63,556 nt of DNA, filler included, from Collodictyon triciliatum (GCA_043381765.1; 11 parts of 11 records of this genome joined end to end with filler, not necessarily neighbours in it), one strand, 5' to 3'. Counted from the first letter of the whole stretch, positions 6,112 through 58,509 are shown. The notes: a model not told the origin generated them from the letters alone. Numbers and translations: made by a program.

Positions 6112-6220
6112 CCAACAAAANNNNNNNNNNNNNNNNNNNNNNNNNNNNNNNNNNNNNNNNNNNNTTAATTAATTAANNNNNNNNNNNNNNNNNNNNNNNN
6201 NNNNNNNNNNNNNNNNNNNN

Positions 6221-12080: not shown

Positions 12081-12440
12081 CAGGGTGCTGCCCTCGAGGC
12101 GACGTGTTCTGGTATGAGAATGAAAAGAAGCTGTAGCGGGAATGTTTTTTATGTTTTTTATGTTTTTTTGTGTTTTTTTATGTTTTTTTATGTTTTTTTA
12201 TGTTTTTTATGTTTTTTTATGTTTTTTTATGTTTTTTTATGTTTTTATGTTTTTTTATGTTTTTTTATGTTTTTTATGTTTTTTTATGTTTTTTTATGTT
12301 TTTTTATGTTTTTTTATGTTTTTTTATGTTTTTTTATGTTNNNNNNNNNNNNNNNNNNNNNNNNNNNNNNNNNNNNNNNNNNNNTTAATTAATTAANNNN
12401 NNNNNNNNNNNNNNNNNNNNNNNNNNNNNNNNNNNNNNNN

Positions 12441-18460
<6,020 letters not shown>

Positions 18461-18660
18461 GTTTCTTTAAATCATATTTAAATTCATGTATGCTTTTTTT
18501 TTTTTTTTTTTTAATTTTTCTTTTCAATTTTGTGCAAAATTTTGGGTCTTGAACCTTTTNNNNNNNNNNNNNNNNNNNNNNNNNNNNNNNNNNNNNNNNN
18601 NNNTTAATTAATTAANNNNNNNNNNNNNNNNNNNNNNNNNNNNNNNNNNNNNNNNNNNNA

Positions 18661-24769: not shown

Positions 24770-24875
24770 TCTCCTNNNNNNNNNNNNNNNNNNNNNNNNN
24801 NNNNNNNNNNNNNNNNNNNTTAATTAATTAANNNNNNNNNNNNNNNNNNNNNNNNNNNNNNNNNNNNNNNNNNNN

Positions 24876-27325
24876 GAGACTGAGACTGAGACTGAGACTG
24901 AGACTGAGACTGAGACTGAGACTGAGACTGAGACTGAGACTGAGACTGAGACTGAGACTGAGACTGAGACTGAGGTTGAGATTGAGATATAGGCTGTTCT
25001 AGTGTGACAGACTTCATCGCAGATTCTGACTCGGATATCGTCATTATGACATTTTTGTCGAGAATTTCCTCTACTAAAATTCTTTCGGTATGCAAATGTT
25101 TTTTCTTCAATTCAATTTTTGTGTATCTTAATTTCGCGGGTAATTGAATATTTGATTCATTCTGCTCGCCAACAGGCAAGTATGGAACTCTGCCTGCGAA
25201 ACTCCCACTCACAAAATCAAAAGAATTACTGGAGTAATTTTTCTTTCTGTCATTTTTTGTGCTGGCCTTACTTCGGTCCCGTATTTTGTCAGCTCCTGGA
25301 AAGATCTCTTCATGACTCGAACATATGTGATTACATCTTTTTACCCCAAATCCTATGTATCCTTTTACACCAAAAACGAGTGTAAGTTTCATGTCTACTA
25401 TAATGTATAAGGTATAAATACAAAACCTACCCCGCTGTGCAGGCGAACAGTTCGCTTTGGGTAAATCACAGTACGGTTCTGTGTGATGTTTTTGGCGTAT
25501 TCCAAAGGATGAGACATGTGACTCTATTTTTTCATAACTTTGCTGGTGTTTGTGCCCAATAACTTGCAGGTGATATGGTGAATTGTGTGTCACTTTTTTT
25601 AATAATGTGAACAGTTTCGTACTTTTGAGGGATTGAATAAAAAATATAGCCTTGGTTTCTACTTTCTGCTGAGGAGTTCGAGCAGTGGATGTTTTTTCTT
25701 TATATGCTATAATTAGTTAAGTCAGTGTTTGCATTCCCCTGATGAATTACTATTTTTATTGAGTTATTAGTTTACAAAATGGCTAACTGCAGTATTCCTT
25801 CGGGAATGTTGATAACATTGGATATCTATCAGCAAGGGAAGTAGGTAAGCAGTTACCTTTTTTGACCCATTTTTCAATTACTATATTATAATCGGGAAGT
25901 TGAACTTTAATTTCGGCATTGTACTGTCGGCAAATTTGAAATATCTATTCGTTGGTATACATTAAAGTTTCATCCTGTTTTGAGGCTAAAAAATGATAAA
26001 AATTATGATATGTTGTGCAAAAAAAAAAAGATCATGGAGTCCACACCTGCTGGGGCCATATTCTCCTTTAAAGATATATTTAAAACAATTAAAATTAGAA
26101 GATATATGTGTATAAATGCAAAATACAAGATATGAAGCATGGGTAAAATAAAACCTAATCCAAAATTTATAAGCGATGTATCCCTTGAGATAAAATTTTA
26201 GTCTGCTTGGTATGCAAGTGTGCGAAACTCTAAAGAATTCTGATTTTGCGTGTGTCACATGATAATCTAAGGAATTAAATTGCTTTTATTGACTTAAATT
26301 GAAATGTAAGAAGATCGAAGCTGATTGTGTTGGTGATCGGATAGATGACAATAGTAAAAGAAAAGGTATTGTTTCCTGACCTTTATGACTCTGAATATGC
26401 TGCTTCTTGGGGTTGTTCATATATTTAGAATATATATTTTGTAAAAATTGAGAATTCAAAAAATATTTTAAAAAAGCTTAAAACTAAACGTTATCATCAT
26501 GTTATTTTAGCATACCAAATCGTATGAATCAACTACCTCTTTTACCCAGTGAGGATTTCGTTCTTCTCTTATTCGAATATTTGAATCAAGTTTGTTCGTG
26601 GAAGCCCTGGAAATATTTCTATATTGTGCATCTTTCTTAAGCAACTTTTTTAGGTCGTAAGTATTTCTATCTGGTGGATAAACTATCTTTGCTTTTTCTA
26701 AAGTCATAATAATTGTTTCTATGGTACTATTTGATGTTCCTTTTTGAGTGTGCCCCGTCTTCGGTAGATTCTCATCAGAATAGCAGAAAAATGATTTTAT
26801 GTCAGGCGGTGAAATCATATCTTTTCGTGATTTTTTTGATATGTCTGCCCCATCTAATTTCTTCTGACATCGATTTGTGTATGTAAGTGTAAAAACCACA
26901 GGTTGACTGCGCCCAACACTCTCATCGCTTAACCTCGTATTTTTTGCCGTACTTGCATTGGATAGTAAACGGTATTCATTCTCATGTGCATGTTTTAGAT
27001 TAAAGCCGTCAATATAACTTGCTTTTCCAGTTGATAGTAATCGAGAATAGTCAGGTAGACATTTTCTGTTCCCAGGGGGTGATATTTTAACCAGGAAGTA
27101 GCCACGCATCAAGCTGTCGCCGCTACTTTTGGAGTTGCAGTTTGCTTGGGTGGGCTGAGTCTTTCGATCAGCGCGTACGTTTAGGAACATGCCCCAACAA
27201 TTCTTGAGACATATTTTCACACTTCCTCCTTGAGGATCGAGGCTCTCTTTTTCGAAAAGGAAGGCACAAAGGAACACAATAACAAGCAGGCGAATTCTCC
27301 CTGTCCAAGGACGTCCTGCAGCCAT
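24876..27325 (-). CDS. Hypothetical protein(s) with an N-terminal hydrophobic segment; exon structure unresolved
   Basis: A 272-codon ORF at 26507-27325 begins MAAGRPWTGRIRLLVIVFLCAFLF. An open frame at 24876-25593 ends in a (QS)n repeat at the scaffold edge. No family recognised. Confidence 0.35.
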
Positions 27326-27599
27326 CTTTTCCAGAAGCGAAGTATCTGCCGTATTTTGCAGGGTCAGCAGATCATCGACAATGACAAAAAAAAAAAAAAA
27401 GGAATATCAGGCCGCTTCTCTTTGCCAAGTGCCGTACTGTGCTGCCTCCTGGTGACGCATTCACACACGATGTACGATCACATCGGTTGAGCTTCTTGGT
27501 TATTTGTTGTTGTTGGGACTTGAAATGGGTTCTTCAGATCTGGATCAATGTAACCTTTTCTAATTGTGGATTTGATGCAACCACTTTGTTTTTTATTTT

Positions 27600-28230
27600 G
27601 TTCAACTAGAAGGGGTATACCAATCCTTCGATTGGTAAACCTGGTGCGTTTTTTTTTTTTTTATTGCTTCTTTCGATTTGTGCAAGATGCTGGAGGTGTT
27701 GGCTTTGGTTCGCTAGTCATCGTTTACATGGACGCTACTTGGTGGCTGGTTGGCGGAGAAGTAGTCGTTAATCAGGATTTGCATCCTGCGGTTTGGCCTG
27801 TGGCCTGGGACTTGTGCTTGCGTGAGAGACAGGGCGAGTTTGAATCTCATCCATCTATCTTCCACATGTCTCTTCTCGAAGGGCCTGATTAGTAGAGAAC
27901 GTGCAGGTGGCAAAGAAAGTTGTTGAGGAAAGAGATTCGTATGATGGCATCCAGCCTATTGTCAGGAGTGGGTGGCTGACTGTTGAATCTTACTTTGCGT
28001 GAGTATATGCGCGCTATCCACATAGTCCATAGCAAATGACCTCGCGTCACTGCCCAGAATGTTTTTGCATCTGGACGCAGTTGTTGCAGAGGCCCGAATA
28101 TCGCCTGGATTGGGCCAACAGCCGCAGCCGGTAAACCTGGTGCGCTAGTACCCAAGGTCTCACCACTTTTTTTTCGCAAAGGTCGTGTAGTGGTGAAGGA
28201 TGCCAGGAAAGACCCAACAGCCATTTTTTT
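27600..28230 (-). ncRNA. Candidate Fanzor omegaRNA scaffold (about 28230-28130 plus 27633-27600), interrupted by a LINE insertion
   Basis: Lies immediately 3' of the Fanzor ORF. Stem TCACCACT/AGTGGTGA (28160-28167 with 28189-28196); hairpin TACCAATC-GAAG-GATTGGTA (27618-27637); possible GGGTA/TACCC and CTAG/CTAG pairings across the insertion point. Confidence 0.55.
27649..28129 (-). mobile_element. 5'-truncated non-LTR retrotransposon (L1/Tx1-like) fragment, 481 bp
   Basis: Perfect 15-bp direct repeat GGTAAACCTGGTGCG at 27634-27648 and 28130-28144. A minus-strand A14 tail (27649-27662) containing AATAAA abuts one copy. The peptide AIFG...FWAVTRGHLLWTMWIAR...F resembles the ORF2 C-terminal WxxWxxR motif. 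Confidence 0.85.
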
Positions 28231-28249
28231 AGGGTTAGGTGTGTCCATT

Positions 28250-30116
28250 TTTTGAAGGATAAAAAGAACTTTCTTGAGTATATATTATTAGCGCTGTTAA
28301 AGTCCCTTGTCAAGAATACACTTTGTTTGCCTTCTGAGCGATTGCATTTTTTACACATGAGACATCTATACACTTTTTTGTATTTCCTTTCAGTGTCATA
28401 TATTCCAGTTCGTTTTCGAAGTTGCAGCACATCTTGGAGGTTCTAAATTCATCTACGCTAATTGTTTCAAAACGTTTAGATACTATTTTTCGTAATCCTC
28501 TTCTGATTGTTGGCATAGAACGCTTCATCTGAGATTTTCTGCTCCAGCCTCCACACGCCAGTACAACATCCTTGCCAAATGTCTTTTCGAATCGGTCCAT
28601 TAACAATTGTTCACTTATTTTTGTATTAGCATACTGTCTCCATCTCATCTTTCGAAAAGCCACTTGTTCATAAAATCTGCAAAGTTCTACCTGGTATCTT
28701 GATTTCATAGATACATATTTTCGATTTTTTTTTCATAATCGACCGTGCATGAATTGTGTTTGCTCAGTTGTGTCTCTAAATCGATTAAAGATACTCTTGA
28801 AGCCTCAAATTGCTGATTCTCCTCAAAAGTCATGTGAACAAAATAAATAGCACTTTATAAACTTGTTGCCATGCATATCCCTGAAGCATTGTACTTTTCT
28901 TTCTTTTTCTCGCGCAAGAGTATTTTGTGATTTTTAAGATATTTGCTATCATGTGTTATTTGATGTGTTGTGTAACGTAATTTCTTACCTGCCTCATCCA
29001 CTATGTAAACCAAATTAAACTTGCCTGCGTCCAGCCCAACTATTTTTTTGTCGCTAATAAAGATAACTGCTCTTCGGAAAGTTCATCTATATAGACATAT
29101 TCTTGGTTTTTTTGATTATTTTTTATTTTTGAATTTGAAATACCTTTCTTTTCAAACAATAATGACATCGCCAAGCCGTCTGTTTGTATCATGTATTTAA
29201 AATTGTAGTCTCTTTGATGATAGACCCTCTTCTTCATTTCAAAGAAGTCATCCCATTGGGTCTCATTGAATCCTGATATATTATTCATTAATGATACTTT
29301 TCCAGATAACACTAACCTACCTATCAAACATGACGTATCTAGAGTAATATGACATGGTATATTGTTAGTTCCTATAGGGATTGGCTGAAACAGTTTTGTT
29401 CAAATATCCTCAAAAATGAGATTCATGTAAATCAGACATGGAATGTACTTATTTGGATTGACTTTGACGTCATATTCGATACCATTTACAATATCGCTGG
29501 TTATGATATGGTGCAAATGCGTTATAACCCATTCTTTATATTGTTCCGGTATTTCGAGCTTCTTGAAGATGGCTTTTTTTAAACTAACGTAACTCTGCCT
29601 TTTAATGCCTTCCGTAATATTCTCATCTTTAGGAAATGTTTGATTTATAAAGCGCAGTAATCTCTTTACAAAATGTTCCTTAATGTTCTTATGATAAGCT
29701 GTTAACATTTGCTTCGCCAAGTACGGTAGTACATGAGACAGTCTAACCAACGGAAAGCGTTCTTCTCGAGATAAAAAGAATCGAAAATCATTGAGATAAA
29801 AAGTCATCATGTCATCTCTCGTTTCTGGTTTTTTTAAAACTTGCGGGTCTATCTTGTGAAACTATTCCGACTGTTTTCAAAGCGTACGAAAAAAAAACAT
29901 TTCATCGATTGTTGGGAGGTGTTGTGATTTCAATATGTAACATCTTGCAAACAGATAAGTGTCGGTAACCAAATCATGACACAATAAAACCGTATCGTTG
30001 ATTTCGTCATAGTCATCCGCATTCTTTACAATCGACTTTGGAGATGATTTCACATTTCGATAGTCTGGTTTTACAGACTTATGATTCTCAGACTCAAGAT
30101 GTTTTCTTTTCTTCAT
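28250..30116 (-). pseudogene. Fanzor1: Fanzor1 (eukaryotic TnpB-like RNA-guided RuvC endonuclease), about 590 aa when reconstructed; disrupted
   Basis: Collinear motifs: MKKRKH (NLS-like), YHKNIKEHFVKRLLRFIN, YDVKVNP, KLFQPIP..IPCHITLDT, MIQTDG, RuvC-I IVGLDAGK, LETQLSKHNSCTVDY, FRKMRW, VLACGGWS, PTIRRGLRK, RuvC-II VDEFRTSKMCC, VYRCLMCKKC and RuvC-III TRDFNSANNI. One in-frame TGA (29400-29402) and about five frameshifts. Confidence 0.92.
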
Positions 30117-31627
30117 CTGAAAGTCTTTGGTTTACTTTTTCCTTTTGAAAACTACTGAGTTTTCATTTTTAATAAAACTTGAGTCTATTAGTCAATTTAA
30201 TAATAAAAAACAGCATCAAATCAATTTATGTAAAATTAAGCATCAACCGAGACCCTCAAAATATGCGCATTGTGGCAAACAAACACACAAAGTTTTTTTA
30301 TAAGTGATTTGAGACAAAACGCTGCGAGCCGATTCGGCGAGTTTGAAAGGGCGGCCGTATAGCCATTGTGATTGAAAGTCAACATATCGACCCCAAACAA
30401 CATGATTACCGCCGCAAGAGTGGACAGTATGCTTTTTTGAAATGCATGTTTGGTGGCAGGTTTATGGGGTGGGTTCTGTCTGGGCCAAGGCAACAGCTTG
30501 TTTGAAATTTTTGAATTTCTGAAGTATATTACATAAATGAGAAATAAAATGGAAATTAATTAAAGGAATAGAATGAGATTTTTTTATGTATTAACCTTAT
30601 TATATATTCTAAGTAAACTATTATATCATTCAGGTTGTTTCTTGGCATCATCAAGCTCCTGCTTTTCTGAATCCAGATTTAACTCGATGGTTGTCTGTGC
30701 AATAAACTGCTATATATGGATTCACTTTCGTTGTATAAAAAGTTTGTTGTGCCTTGAAAGGGATAAAACCAAGTTCGTCACAACCTTTGCAATGTAGTTT
30801 ATCCATTTACAGGCCGAATAAGACCGAAGAGAAAGGAAAAGAGAAAAAGAAAAAAAAGAAAATATGTCAAAATGAATGAAAAAGAAAAAGGGGAAGAGAA
30901 AAGAAAAGAAAAGAAAAGAAAAGAAAAGAAAAGAAAAGAAAAGAAAAGAAAAGAAAAGAAAAGAAAAGAAAAGAAAAGAAAAGAAAAGAAANNNNNNNNN
31001 NNNNNNNNNNNNNNNNNNNNNNNNNNNNNNNNNNNTTAATTAATTAANNNNNNNNNNNNNNNNNNNNNNNNNNNNNNNNNNNNNNNNNNNNTGGTTCCGT
31101 ACCACAGGCGCAAGTTTCGACTCAAAGGGGTACGACAAATAGGGAATATGAGCATTCTGCACCGATAATGGTGTGAGATTTGGCTAATCTTTTTGCATGT
31201 GACATGAAGCGTGATGATAATAGCAGGGTTTAGAGACATGAATGTAATTATACTGTATTTTCCATAATTATACTGGGAACAATCTGCAAATCTATGCCTA
31301 TATTCGTCTAAATTCCCAATTCCACGCCGCCGTTCCCAAGCCCGAGGCAATAAGTATCCGTGGGCTACAAAAACCTCCGCGACGTTTATATATTTTGCAT
31401 CAAGGAAACCTTGAGTATTGGGTCTTGGGGCATCATGGAATGCAAGGAAGTGAGACGGGGAAGATATCAACGAAACGAGAGCAACGGATACCCAGAGCAG
31501 CCCGGCCAGAAGGCCATTCCAAGTGCAGAAACAACAACCAAGATACCAACACTCATCCGGGCAAATCTCCTCTTCCCCCCTCATCCTAACCCTTACCCTA
31601 ATCCACAGCAAGCCAACCAGCCACCCC

Positions 31628-56796: not shown

Positions 56797-58509
56797 ATGA
56801 CAACACCACTCCCAGCTGAATCAATCGAAGCCCTTGACAGCATTGCGAAGCGTTGTGCGGGTTGTCAGAAACTTCTGTCACAACATGAGTGGAAAGTTAC
56901 AGACCAAAAGCCATTTACGGAGAGACGTCAAGAGCTATTGAGCTATGGCCAGCTCATCCATGGAGAAGCAACCAAACGTATTTCACTTATTCGTTACATT
57001 CAATAAGACGATGAAAAATTGCGACAACCAATCTCTTCCAGTTGACAAAGTATTTTTCTTTCCCCTGCTGTGTAATATGAAGTGCTTGGTATTCTGATTC
57101 TTGATTTTTCTTTATTAAAAAAAATATACTTTAGTGTATTTTTATGTATTATATTGAACATTTTCTGCTCTCTTTTATTCAATTATTTGAATCACAGTAA
57201 TATTTACTGCCCTATATTTCTAATTTTTTTTTAAAAAAAAAAGCCTGACGACAACTTTACCTCTATCAACACATATGCAGTTTCTCTTGTTCTTCGAGGT
57301 GATAGCAGCGCTGAAGGCGTTAAGAGTATCGTTAGTCGCATTAATGATATTCTCTTTCGGGCTGTATGTTGTTGTTTTTTTTTTTTAAAAAAAAAAAGAA
57401 ACATAATTTCAATTTTAGGTGTAAAATGCATATCTGTATTGCTTTTATTTTTATTTTTTTGTGTTAATTAACCACGTTAGACCATGACTGCTGCATCGTT
57501 TGCGTCGACAGTATGCTCTCCGTACAGGAAGAGGGTTCATGATTTTCTTACTTTACACTTCGATCATAAAAGATAATAGTAAATATTTTCAAAATCTAAA
57601 TTATATCCCTTTAATCATCGTTTTTGTGCCCACTCACATATAAAGGCACAAAATTGAAGTCAATATCTTTATTTCTGTAATATTTGTAGATTCAAGAGTC
57701 TACGAAGCAAATTCTCGAAAAGTTTTCCGAACTTGCGATGGGGTATACCGTCAAACAGAATAGATATCAGGTTGGAAGGAGACTCTAATATCGTATACAA
57801 TCGAACAGAAAAAAAAAGCATTCGCCCTCAGGTGATCTAAACACAGGATAATTGAAATGAACAGGTAGCTCTCACCCTCACTTCTGTGGCGTGGAATGCC
57901 TGTGATGAGCTCAAGTTTTTGCCACGCAGTCAGGTCGAGTCACTTGCAGTGATTGCAGAGTCTTCAGGAAATATTATCCAGGATGCAATTCAAGAAGTTG
58001 CTTCCTCCCTGAGGCCAAAGTCTATTGAAGATAAACTAGACGCCATAGGTATTGAGGACAAAGTGGGTGGAGACGAGGAAGACCAAGACTTGGAAGACTT
58101 TGACTTCTATGACGATCTTGGTGAGATGAGCGAGGAAGAGAACGCCGTGGTCCAACGAGCTCTAGAAATGATGACACTCATTGTTGTCCTGCTAAGAGTG
58201 CTAGTAAAGGAGATTCGCACGATTCCGTACCACGAGAATGAGGACGGATGGACAGGGCTTCTGGACCAGTTTGTGAAGCAGGTGAATGCTCTAGAATCGA
58301 CGGGAATAGACATTGGAGCAGCGATTGCTATGGACAGGAGCGAGGTGCCCACACTTGTGGACACACTAGTGGGGCAATCCGACGCGCTGTTTCGGGCCAT
58401 TATGGCAGTCCCTGTTTTATCCACACCTACGATAATCGCTGCAGTCGAGTCTGCCAAGCATGGGATAGCTTCTTTGCTGTCTGAACCGCATAAAGAGGAT
58501 GACGTCTAA
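56797..58509 (+). CDS. Cyclin-D1-binding protein 1 (GCIP)-like protein
   Basis: IHGEATK early; last exon VAWNACDELKFLP..IIQDAIQEV, an acidic linker, MSEEENAVV..LLDQFV..IDIGAAI. Confidence 0.6.

Follow-up and report, generated by a model that had tools for sequence, protein, structure and literature searches.

A dead Fanzor1 gene and the probable remains of an omegaRNA scaffold at its 3′ end

Are the stems at the 3′ end of a broken Fanzor1 gene the scaffold of a guide RNA, or did they arise incidentally as the gene and its flank decayed? An earlier note on this DNA read the region 27600-28230 as an omegaRNA scaffold that becomes recognizable, on the minus strand, only after an insertion and one copy of a direct repeat have been deleted. 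In the sections of the published reports used here, Fanzor1 omegaRNAs are described as encoded at the 3′ end of the ORF and spanning the right inverted repeat (PMC10432273). That of SpuFz1 consists of a scaffold across the right inverted repeat and a guide of 14-15 nt beyond it (Saito 2023, PMC10432273), that of GtFz1 overlaps the ORF (PMC10432273, PMC10530073), and in every characterized Fanzor1 covered by those sections the guide RNA lies at the ORF 3′ end (PMC10432273, PMC10530073). We consider it probable, with real reservations, that the region examined here encoded such a scaffold and has decayed along with its now dead Fanzor1 element.

The window, by which we mean the whole stretch of 63,556 nucleotides from Collodictyon triciliatum that was analyzed, filler included, consists of contigs, each about 6.1 kb long, strung together with the largest first. 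These are separated by spacers of the form N44-TTAATTAATTAA-N44 (6121-6220, 12341-12440, 18560-18659, 24776-24875, 30992-31091 and onward, about every 6.2 kb), and adjacent segments are not genomic neighbors. The Fanzor1 pseudogene and the stems lie in one segment, 24876-30991; the features discussed below are collected in Table 1.

The nuclease gene and the insert in its tail

Judged by its sequence, the gene upstream of the stems is a dead copy, a pseudogene, of Fanzor1, which agrees with the earlier note's reading of the stems in terms of Fanzor/TnpB omegaRNAs. In tblastn against the window, residues 3-588 of a relative of 634 amino acids (P0002) are aligned in four pieces, 33-65% identical, in frames -3, -2, -1 and -3, with three frame changes and five in-frame stops. 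When compared with solved chains, a 140-aa fragment of the window (28310-28732) matches PpFz1 (E 5e-10), SpuFz1 (E 1e-4), and GtFz1 (E 6e-3), and P0002 itself matches SpuFz1 (E 9e-37) and PpFz1 (E 7e-34). The D, E, and D motifs of RuvC are kept: GLDAGK, VDEFRTSK, and TRDFNSANNI (RuvC-III, ending at 28281) align to the motifs of the relatives, which are invariant columns in an alignment of 12 of them (A1). The C4 zinc finger between RuvC-II and RuvC-III retains its second pair, CLMCKKC, whereas the first reads CCNF in place of the CCRC of P0002. Pfam alone returned only sub-threshold matches, to RuvC_1 and OrfB_IS605.

The window contains no intact ORF for this protein; in addition to the stops and frame changes, there is a 2-nt difference at 28279 and a retroposon in the tail. 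Since the gene is dead, the locus must be regarded as a relic rather than a working system, and it is very improbable that it functions today with a gene of its own. Self-BLAST and tblastn of the window revealed no sibling copy: there is a single Fanzor locus, with none in the other ten segments. The window's own fragments, searched in viral contigs, found no related loci, and the 140-aa fragment had only one match among longer proteins. Six public sequencing runs match, each sharing a small part of the sampled words, and no RNA run is listed among these six.

The tail of the gene is interrupted by 481 nt lying between the two copies of an exact 15-nt direct repeat (100% identical, spacing 496, family D12). 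On the minus strand the 3′ end of this insert shows AATAAA and then 14 consecutive A (27662-27649). Logan contigs from four public runs were aligned to 26000-30800 at a likeness of at least 80%; in run X2, 636 contig pieces aligned, with a likeness of 80-99%. Two of the runs contain joints that lack the insert. One X2 contig (depth 10.9, shorter side 29) passes from 27633 directly to 28130, skipping 496, with 15 letters that fit either side; in X1, a contig has 27648 linked to 28171 across 22 diverged letters. Loose ends at 28130 in runs X1, X2, and X3 indicate that further copies of the insert extend 5′-wards, and the copy found here is therefore 5′-truncated. X2 depth over the insert is about 2,300-2,440 (bins 27610-27931) before dropping to 1,259 and 628 in the next two bins; across the Fanzor gene part it is about 90-500. 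All the hallmarks of a non-LTR retroposon are present, namely a poly(A) tail, a target-site duplication, 5′ truncation, and an insert-free site elsewhere. The insert is one copy, 5′-truncated, of a poly(A) retroposon that is very abundant, and the duplication here is 15 nt long. Neither the ORF of the insert nor the neighboring ORFs belong to a Pfam family.

That a later insertion split the region, as had been proposed, is thus borne out by the exact repeat and by contigs of two runs. Given the repeat, the poly(A) tract, and the insert-free contigs, the sequence without the insert represents a real earlier state. The window is made of short contigs (about 6.1 kb) from a fragmented assembly, and in such material one might suspect an assembly artefact or a chimeric contig, in which case the joined sequence would never have existed. 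Yet the insert has a poly(A) tail and is flanked by an exact 15-nt duplication, and independent contigs from two runs join the flanks exactly at the repeat; we find an artefact hardly credible.

Table 1. Positions of the gene, the insert, the stems, and the candidate ends in the window
Feature	Position	Strand	Basis
Fanzor1 pseudogene body, ATG 30116-30114 to last detectable coding similarity	28233..30116	-	tblastn with P0002
Former ORF C-terminal tail, no longer in frame and interrupted by the insert; stop codon TAG 27608-27606	27606..28232	-	
5′-truncated poly(A) retroposon fragment, 481 nt, 3′ end AATAAA + 14 A	27649..28129	-	repeat, tail, contigs, depth
Target-site duplication, upstream copy (minus-strand sense)	28130..28144	.	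15 nt identical to 27634-27648
Target-site duplication, downstream copy; gives part of the 5′ arm of the GAAG hairpin	27634..27648	.	D12
Outer stem ATCC (28201-28198)/GGGT (28153-28150)	28150..28201	-	minimum-energy fold, insert-free 167-nt RNA
Stem B, inside outer stem: TCACCACT (28196-28189)/AGTGGTGA (28167-28160), 21-nt loop		-	same fold
GAAG-capped hairpin GGT.TACCAATC with GATTGGTA.ACC	27614..27641	-	sequence and folds
Terminal helix CCTTCTAGTTG (27613-27603)/CAATTAGAAAAGG (27566-27554), ends ...AAAAGGT	27553..27613	-	167-nt fold
Inside terminal helix: A-rich stretch and inner hairpin GTGG (27584-27581)/CCAC (27569-27566)		-	167-nt fold
Candidate right inverted repeat	27553..27597	-	local alignment; outward extension to 27553 by eye
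Candidate left inverted repeat, TA (30238-30237) before it	30202..30236	-	local alignment and by eye
TA (27552-27551) and putative guide flank, if the RNA ends at 27553	27531..27552	-	analogy: SpuFz1 and the relatives' ...GGTG-TA

Folding of the restored region

Cutting out 27649-28144 by script yields the restored sequence of the earlier note letter for letter. The two stems described there, the 8-bp stem (stem B in Table 1) and the GAAG-capped hairpin (27641-27630 with 27625-27614), are both present in the minimum-energy fold, and the hairpin is contiguous even today because a repeat copy preserves its 5′ arm. The insert-free fold runs from an outer stem around stem B, through the hairpin, to a terminal helix that encloses an inner hairpin. 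In the sequence without the insert, the tail frame (frame 2) ends in ...GLPIEGLVYPF and then the TAG at 27608-27606, which places both stems inside the last approximately 65 codons of the former ORF. The proposed scaffold had been placed between the ORF 3′ end and the element end. Its stems do lie where Fanzor1 guide RNAs are encoded, but they overlap those codons instead of being wholly downstream.

The window copy is frameshifted at 28279, right after the RuvC-III motif, a change that is not common to all siblings: siblings without the two nucleotides have depths of 10.6/10.6 in X1 and 67.6/115.2 in X2. By hand frame arithmetic, their loss would put the frame that follows RuvC-III into that of the ORF 27889..28284.

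Two further pairings had been suggested, and neither appears to be the preferred one. Closure of a multiloop by CTAG/CTAG is seen in the fold of a 101-nt segment but is absent from that of the 167-nt candidate (28215 to 27553, insert removed), in which the 3′ CTAG sits in a helix with 27566-27554. As for a pseudoknot between GGGTA and TACCC, both the longer fold and the analogy of the relatives make it more likely that the GGGT(A) pairs with ATCC (28201-28198). One insert-free X1 contig has GGAT for GGGT, which would change a T-G pair to T-A; this change would fit the ATCC pairing better than the proposed pseudoknot, although a single contig provides only a hint.

The 101-nt segment, without the insert, folds at -28.8 kcal/mol (z -2.57), and a fraction of 0.007 of 150 shuffles is as low or lower. 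For the 167-nt candidate the energy is -43.0 kcal/mol (z -2.03), with 4% of 200 shuffles at least as low, and for its reverse complement it is -45.1 kcal/mol (z -1.89; 3% of 100 shuffles). Among 82 windows of the same length from both strands of the contig, the mean z is 0.17 (sd 1.14, minimum -2.55); one lies below the candidate, at -2.55, and several others are near -2. The stability of the fold is only modestly unusual, at about the lowest twentieth, and is neither exceptional nor specific to one strand. An Rfam search of the contig gave two chance-level matches only (E 5.7 and 6).

Such numbers invite an account in which the stems are incidental. The region would then consist of a decayed C-terminal coding tail and a 3′ untranslated region, its folding would be due to chance and composition, and the omegaRNA of this lineage would be otherwise shaped or encoded elsewhere. 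A fold z of just -2.0, about equaled by the reverse complement, is what that account would lead one to expect, as is a background in which one of the 82 windows falls lower than the candidate and several come close to -2. The place of the stems speaks against it, since the characterized Fanzor1 guide RNAs described in the sections used here are all encoded at exactly this position (PMC10432273, PMC10530073). The remaining evidence on either side comes from the relatives of the gene.

The 3′ module of the relatives

Searched against 1.84 billion representative proteins, P0001 gave 2,917 family members at E ≤ 0.001, and the alignment of 12 relatives (A1) led to 80 loci on metagenome contigs and 80 in IMG/VR (L001-L160). 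Many of the IMG/VR loci are named GVMAG (giant-virus genomes), and all of the genes are intron-less. The relatives carry a 3′ module that starts within the ORF tail, runs on wherever the stop codon falls, and ends ...GGTGTA; beyond this point their sequences diverge, so that similarity ends sharply. A hand-set structure of 34 pairs in six helices (A3) was tested on 86 distinct 3′ modules. In it, 93.3% of cells are paired, compared with 44-50% when the partners are slid by 1-3 columns; changes on both sides were found for 22 pairs, and none of 500 shuffles reached the observed values. An inverted copy starting at the last base of ...GGTGTA was found upstream of the gene in 52 of the 84 loci tested, and in the best 25 rows the span between these ends is approximately 2.35-2.42 kb (22 rows) or 3.1-3.3 kb (3 rows). 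The nearest relatives, mostly on giant-virus contigs, are thereby shown to have a covariation-supported scaffold at the same place, reaching up to the transposon end.

Several peculiarities of individual relatives deserve mention. One giant-virus relative (L123, 4760-4949) has about 50 additional G+C-rich nucleotides in the inner hairpin of the module, perhaps an expansion segment or a nested insertion of small size. Nine loci (L018, L043, L045, L072, L097, L100, L113, L124, and L150) have a second terminal scaffold motif away from the Fanzor gene, and these second copies may be gene-less "ghost" ends; in L119 the terminal module stands behind unrelated upstream sequence. The peptide ...GEKVGQSVDF... 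is conserved in L001-L008 and L082-L088 across proteins that are just about 60% identical, and the DNA encoding it is kept even after the stop codon (L083, L085, L008). This pattern of conservation suggests that, in the closest relatives, the constraint at this peptide acts on RNA rather than on protein.

By eye, the helix order of the window's fold corresponds to that of the relatives, whose helices 1-2, 3-4, and 5-6 follow one another in the same way. The outer stem with stem B nested inside it resembles their helices 1 and 2, which show covariation, and the terminal helix with its inner hairpin parallels helix 6 and the inner hairpin there. In closer detail, again by eye, the 5′ arm of stem B opens with TCACC in the window and in the relatives alike; the hairpin core, CAATC-loop-GATT, is common to the window and L001, which belongs to the closest group by protein; and the end motif reads AAAAGGT-TA in the window versus AAAAGGTG-TA in the relatives. 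Compared with L001, the hairpin matches by eye at 17 of 21 positions if matching insertions of 4 and 3 nt are allowed in its arms, a likeness that was noticed post hoc; the inserted letters of one arm pair with those of the other. In the window, as in the closest relatives, the ORF tail extends over the region of the putative scaffold.

Searches with models of the relatives' module did not recover the region. A covariance model of the 86 sequences and 34 pairs (R1), run on the whole window with a limit of E ≤ 10, gave 11 matches with E values of 1.4-9.7, none of them in 27450-28300. With 27450-28300 searched alone, its best match was on the plus strand (27553-27616; 4.2 bits, E 1 in 851 nt), which is non-significant, and minus-strand matches had at most 0.9 bits. 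A second model, built from the 11 closest relatives (R2), gave at most about 1 bit in the region, and nhmmer on the insert-free window found nothing there. Threading of the insert-free RNA into A3 with MAFFT placed 13 of the 34 pairs, versus 10.1 ± 3.4 for shuffled sequences, 21 of 100 of which did as well. With blastn, the insert-free 3′ region matched only the coding part in the 160 relative loci, and the motifs most conserved among the relatives, TTGATTTTAC and GTTTTAAAT, are absent from the window. Aligned pairwise with the relatives, the region reaches a top score of 176, where shuffles give 140.8 ± 13 (6 of 300 as high); we do not count this as support because the reverse-complement control scores 168. 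In the window itself the insert splits the region, and there the covariance models scored each half alone. Considering this, and that the copy is decayed, the failure of the models weakens the case for a scaffold without ending it.

Other searches returned only scattered matches. Scans with DNA patterns gave 35 in viral contigs and at least 120 in prokaryote genomes; because they are short (16-19 nt) and none is near a Fanzor-like gene, they are attributable to chance. Two marginal nhmmer matches in the window, at 2347-2361 and 56977-57045 (one a 15-nt match, to the terminal motif), have no scaffold context and are probably chance as well.

How, then, should the stems be read? That they are incidental is favored by the failure of every model-based homology test and by the manner in which the parallels were spotted, that is, by eye with both sequences already known. 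It is opposed by the scaffold of the relatives, which has the same helix order and also lies over the ORF tail, and by the TCACC start of stem B and the CAATC/GATT hairpin core, common to both. On balance we judge incidental stems to be unlikely, though a rival of some weight. We infer instead that the stems of the window are probably a scaffold of the relatives' type in the corresponding 3′-end position. The reading of the region as a guide scaffold therefore holds in part: position, family design, and the parallels in helix order favor it, but homology tests with covariance models, a profile HMM, and threading do not bear it out.

A more specific version of this reading can be entertained, although we find it doubtful. 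Within the Mariner-type Fanzor1 clade of giant viruses, the element could represent a lineage that resides in host genomes, has grown to dozens of copies, and has remodeled its omegaRNA (both arms of the hairpin lengthened by matching insertions, and the conserved TTGATTTTAC/terminal helix replaced) into a scaffold subtype invisible to models of the viral clade. Gene-dead copies of such a lineage could supply guides in trans to intact siblings, as the ghost loci of S. punctatus do.

Element ends, history, and known systems

Where did the element end? A local alignment of minus-strand 30226 to 30202 with plus-strand 27562 to 27597 scores 31, a value reached by 4 of 1000 shuffles (19.0 ± 3.1), and defines the core of two candidate inverted repeats. 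By eye, TA stands outside both; on the right, ...GGT(27553) is followed by TA (27552-27551). From coordinates, the insert-free element measures 2,188 nt, the two candidate repeats included. Contigs of X1 and X2 cross the left repeat and reach at least 30743, and the repeated unit consequently does not stop at 30202-30236. In X2, the depth below 27605 is about zero, which could be due to an A-rich stretch together with short contigs or could mark a true end of similarity. Taken together, the end of the candidate repeat and the drop in depth put the right boundary of the element within 27605-27551.

The earlier note had the guide begin just past about 27551. This start agrees with the end of the candidate repeat, ...GGT(27553)-TA, which resembles the relatives' ...GGTG-TA, but the right end is itself only a candidate. 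By analogy, the flank beyond 27553 would be the guide.

At least 500 nt upstream of the left repeat (30240-30800) are also repeated in X1 and X2, and single contigs bridge from there into the Fanzor part, and the amplified unit therefore exceeds the 2.2-kb core. In X2, one contig links 30597 to a point within the retroposon, 27753. Just upstream of the element, an (AAAAG)n microsatellite fills 30890-30991 and reaches the end of the contig.

The ends also raise the question of whether the hairpins act as DNA, as part of a transposon end (an inverted repeat with subterminal transposase-binding sites), and have no role as RNA. The terminal helix and the inner hairpin fall within the candidate repeat (27597-27553 with 30236-30202), the structure signal is strand-symmetric, and the best covariance-model match is on the plus strand, all of which would fit. 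A role at the DNA level would not be exclusive, however, since published Fanzor1 omegaRNAs span the inverted repeat in the section of the report used here (PMC10432273). Moreover, stem B and the GAAG hairpin are outside the candidate repeat, and the repeated unit continues beyond the left repeat. We regard hairpins that serve only as DNA as improbable.

If the region is what we suspect, a decayed omegaRNA scaffold, its history might have run as follows. In a living ancestor, an RNA covering the last approximately 65 codons of the ORF and approximately 55 nt past the stop would have folded as the scaffold: an outer stem around TCACCACT/AGTGGTGA, the GAAG-capped hairpin, and a terminal helix extending to the right end near 27553. 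The flank past that end would have acted as the guide. Afterwards the gene gained its stops and frameshifts, and the 5′-truncated poly(A) retroposon landed in the 5′ arm of the hairpin, duplicating 15 nt.

If true, a design that has already been published gains a further example, a decayed Fanzor1 locus together with its guide-RNA region; the locus itself matters little, since its gene is dead and its RNA region interrupted. Two by-products may be of wider use. One is the consensus structure, well supported by 86 distinct sequences, of the guide-RNA module at the 3′ end of Fanzor1 genes in a large clade from giant viruses. The other is an indication that the genome of a eukaryote has been colonized by a related lineage, a point of relevance to the old proposal of virus-carried transfer of Fanzor between eukaryotes (PMC3627910).

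Three known systems, as described in the sections of the cited reports used here, offer points of comparison. The omegaRNA of TnpB in IS200/IS605 elements overlaps the 3′ end of the nuclease gene, reaches the right end of the element, and has its guide beyond (PMC10432273), much as we propose for the window. That system differs in being bacterial, in its transposase and ends, and in an RNA without detectable sequence relation to the window.

Closest by protein, at 33-65% identity per piece, are the giant-virus Fanzor1 elements of Mariner/Tc1 type (PGv-1 type; Bao and Jurka 2013, PMC3627910; here L001-L160); Fanzor1 has been described in TA-flanked Mariner elements of algal giant viruses (PMC3627910). 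With these the window shares TA-flanked ends and a 3′ module over the ORF tail (both candidates in the window), the order of the helices, and a similar end, AAAAGGT(G)-TA. The genes of these relatives are intact and intron-less and are found on viral or metagenome contigs, whereas that of the window is dead. The window also lacks TTGATTTTAC and GTTTTAAAT and is undetected by covariance models of the relatives' scaffold, and its family is multi-copy in one organism's run, in a genome that also has poly(A) retroposons.

SpuFz1 and its element Spu-1 provide the third comparison. Here the differences are that the window copy is dead and known from sequence only, that its putative scaffold of about 150-165 nt, as opposed to 75 nt in SpuFz1 (PMC10432273), overlaps the ORF tail, and that its inverted repeats are weak, the left one being internal to the repeated unit. 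The likenesses begin with the protein, as the solved SpuFz1 chain is matched by the window's fragment. Both are single-ORF elements of similar size, with loci of about 2.1 kb in the one case (PMC10432273) and 2,188 nt in the other. In SpuFz1, a guide RNA at the ORF 3′ end lies over the right inverted repeat and takes its guide from the flank (PMC10432273), an arrangement that is putative in the window. Finally, decayed, partial, and retroelement-hit copies such as the one considered here have been described in Spizellomyces punctatus too (PMC10432273).
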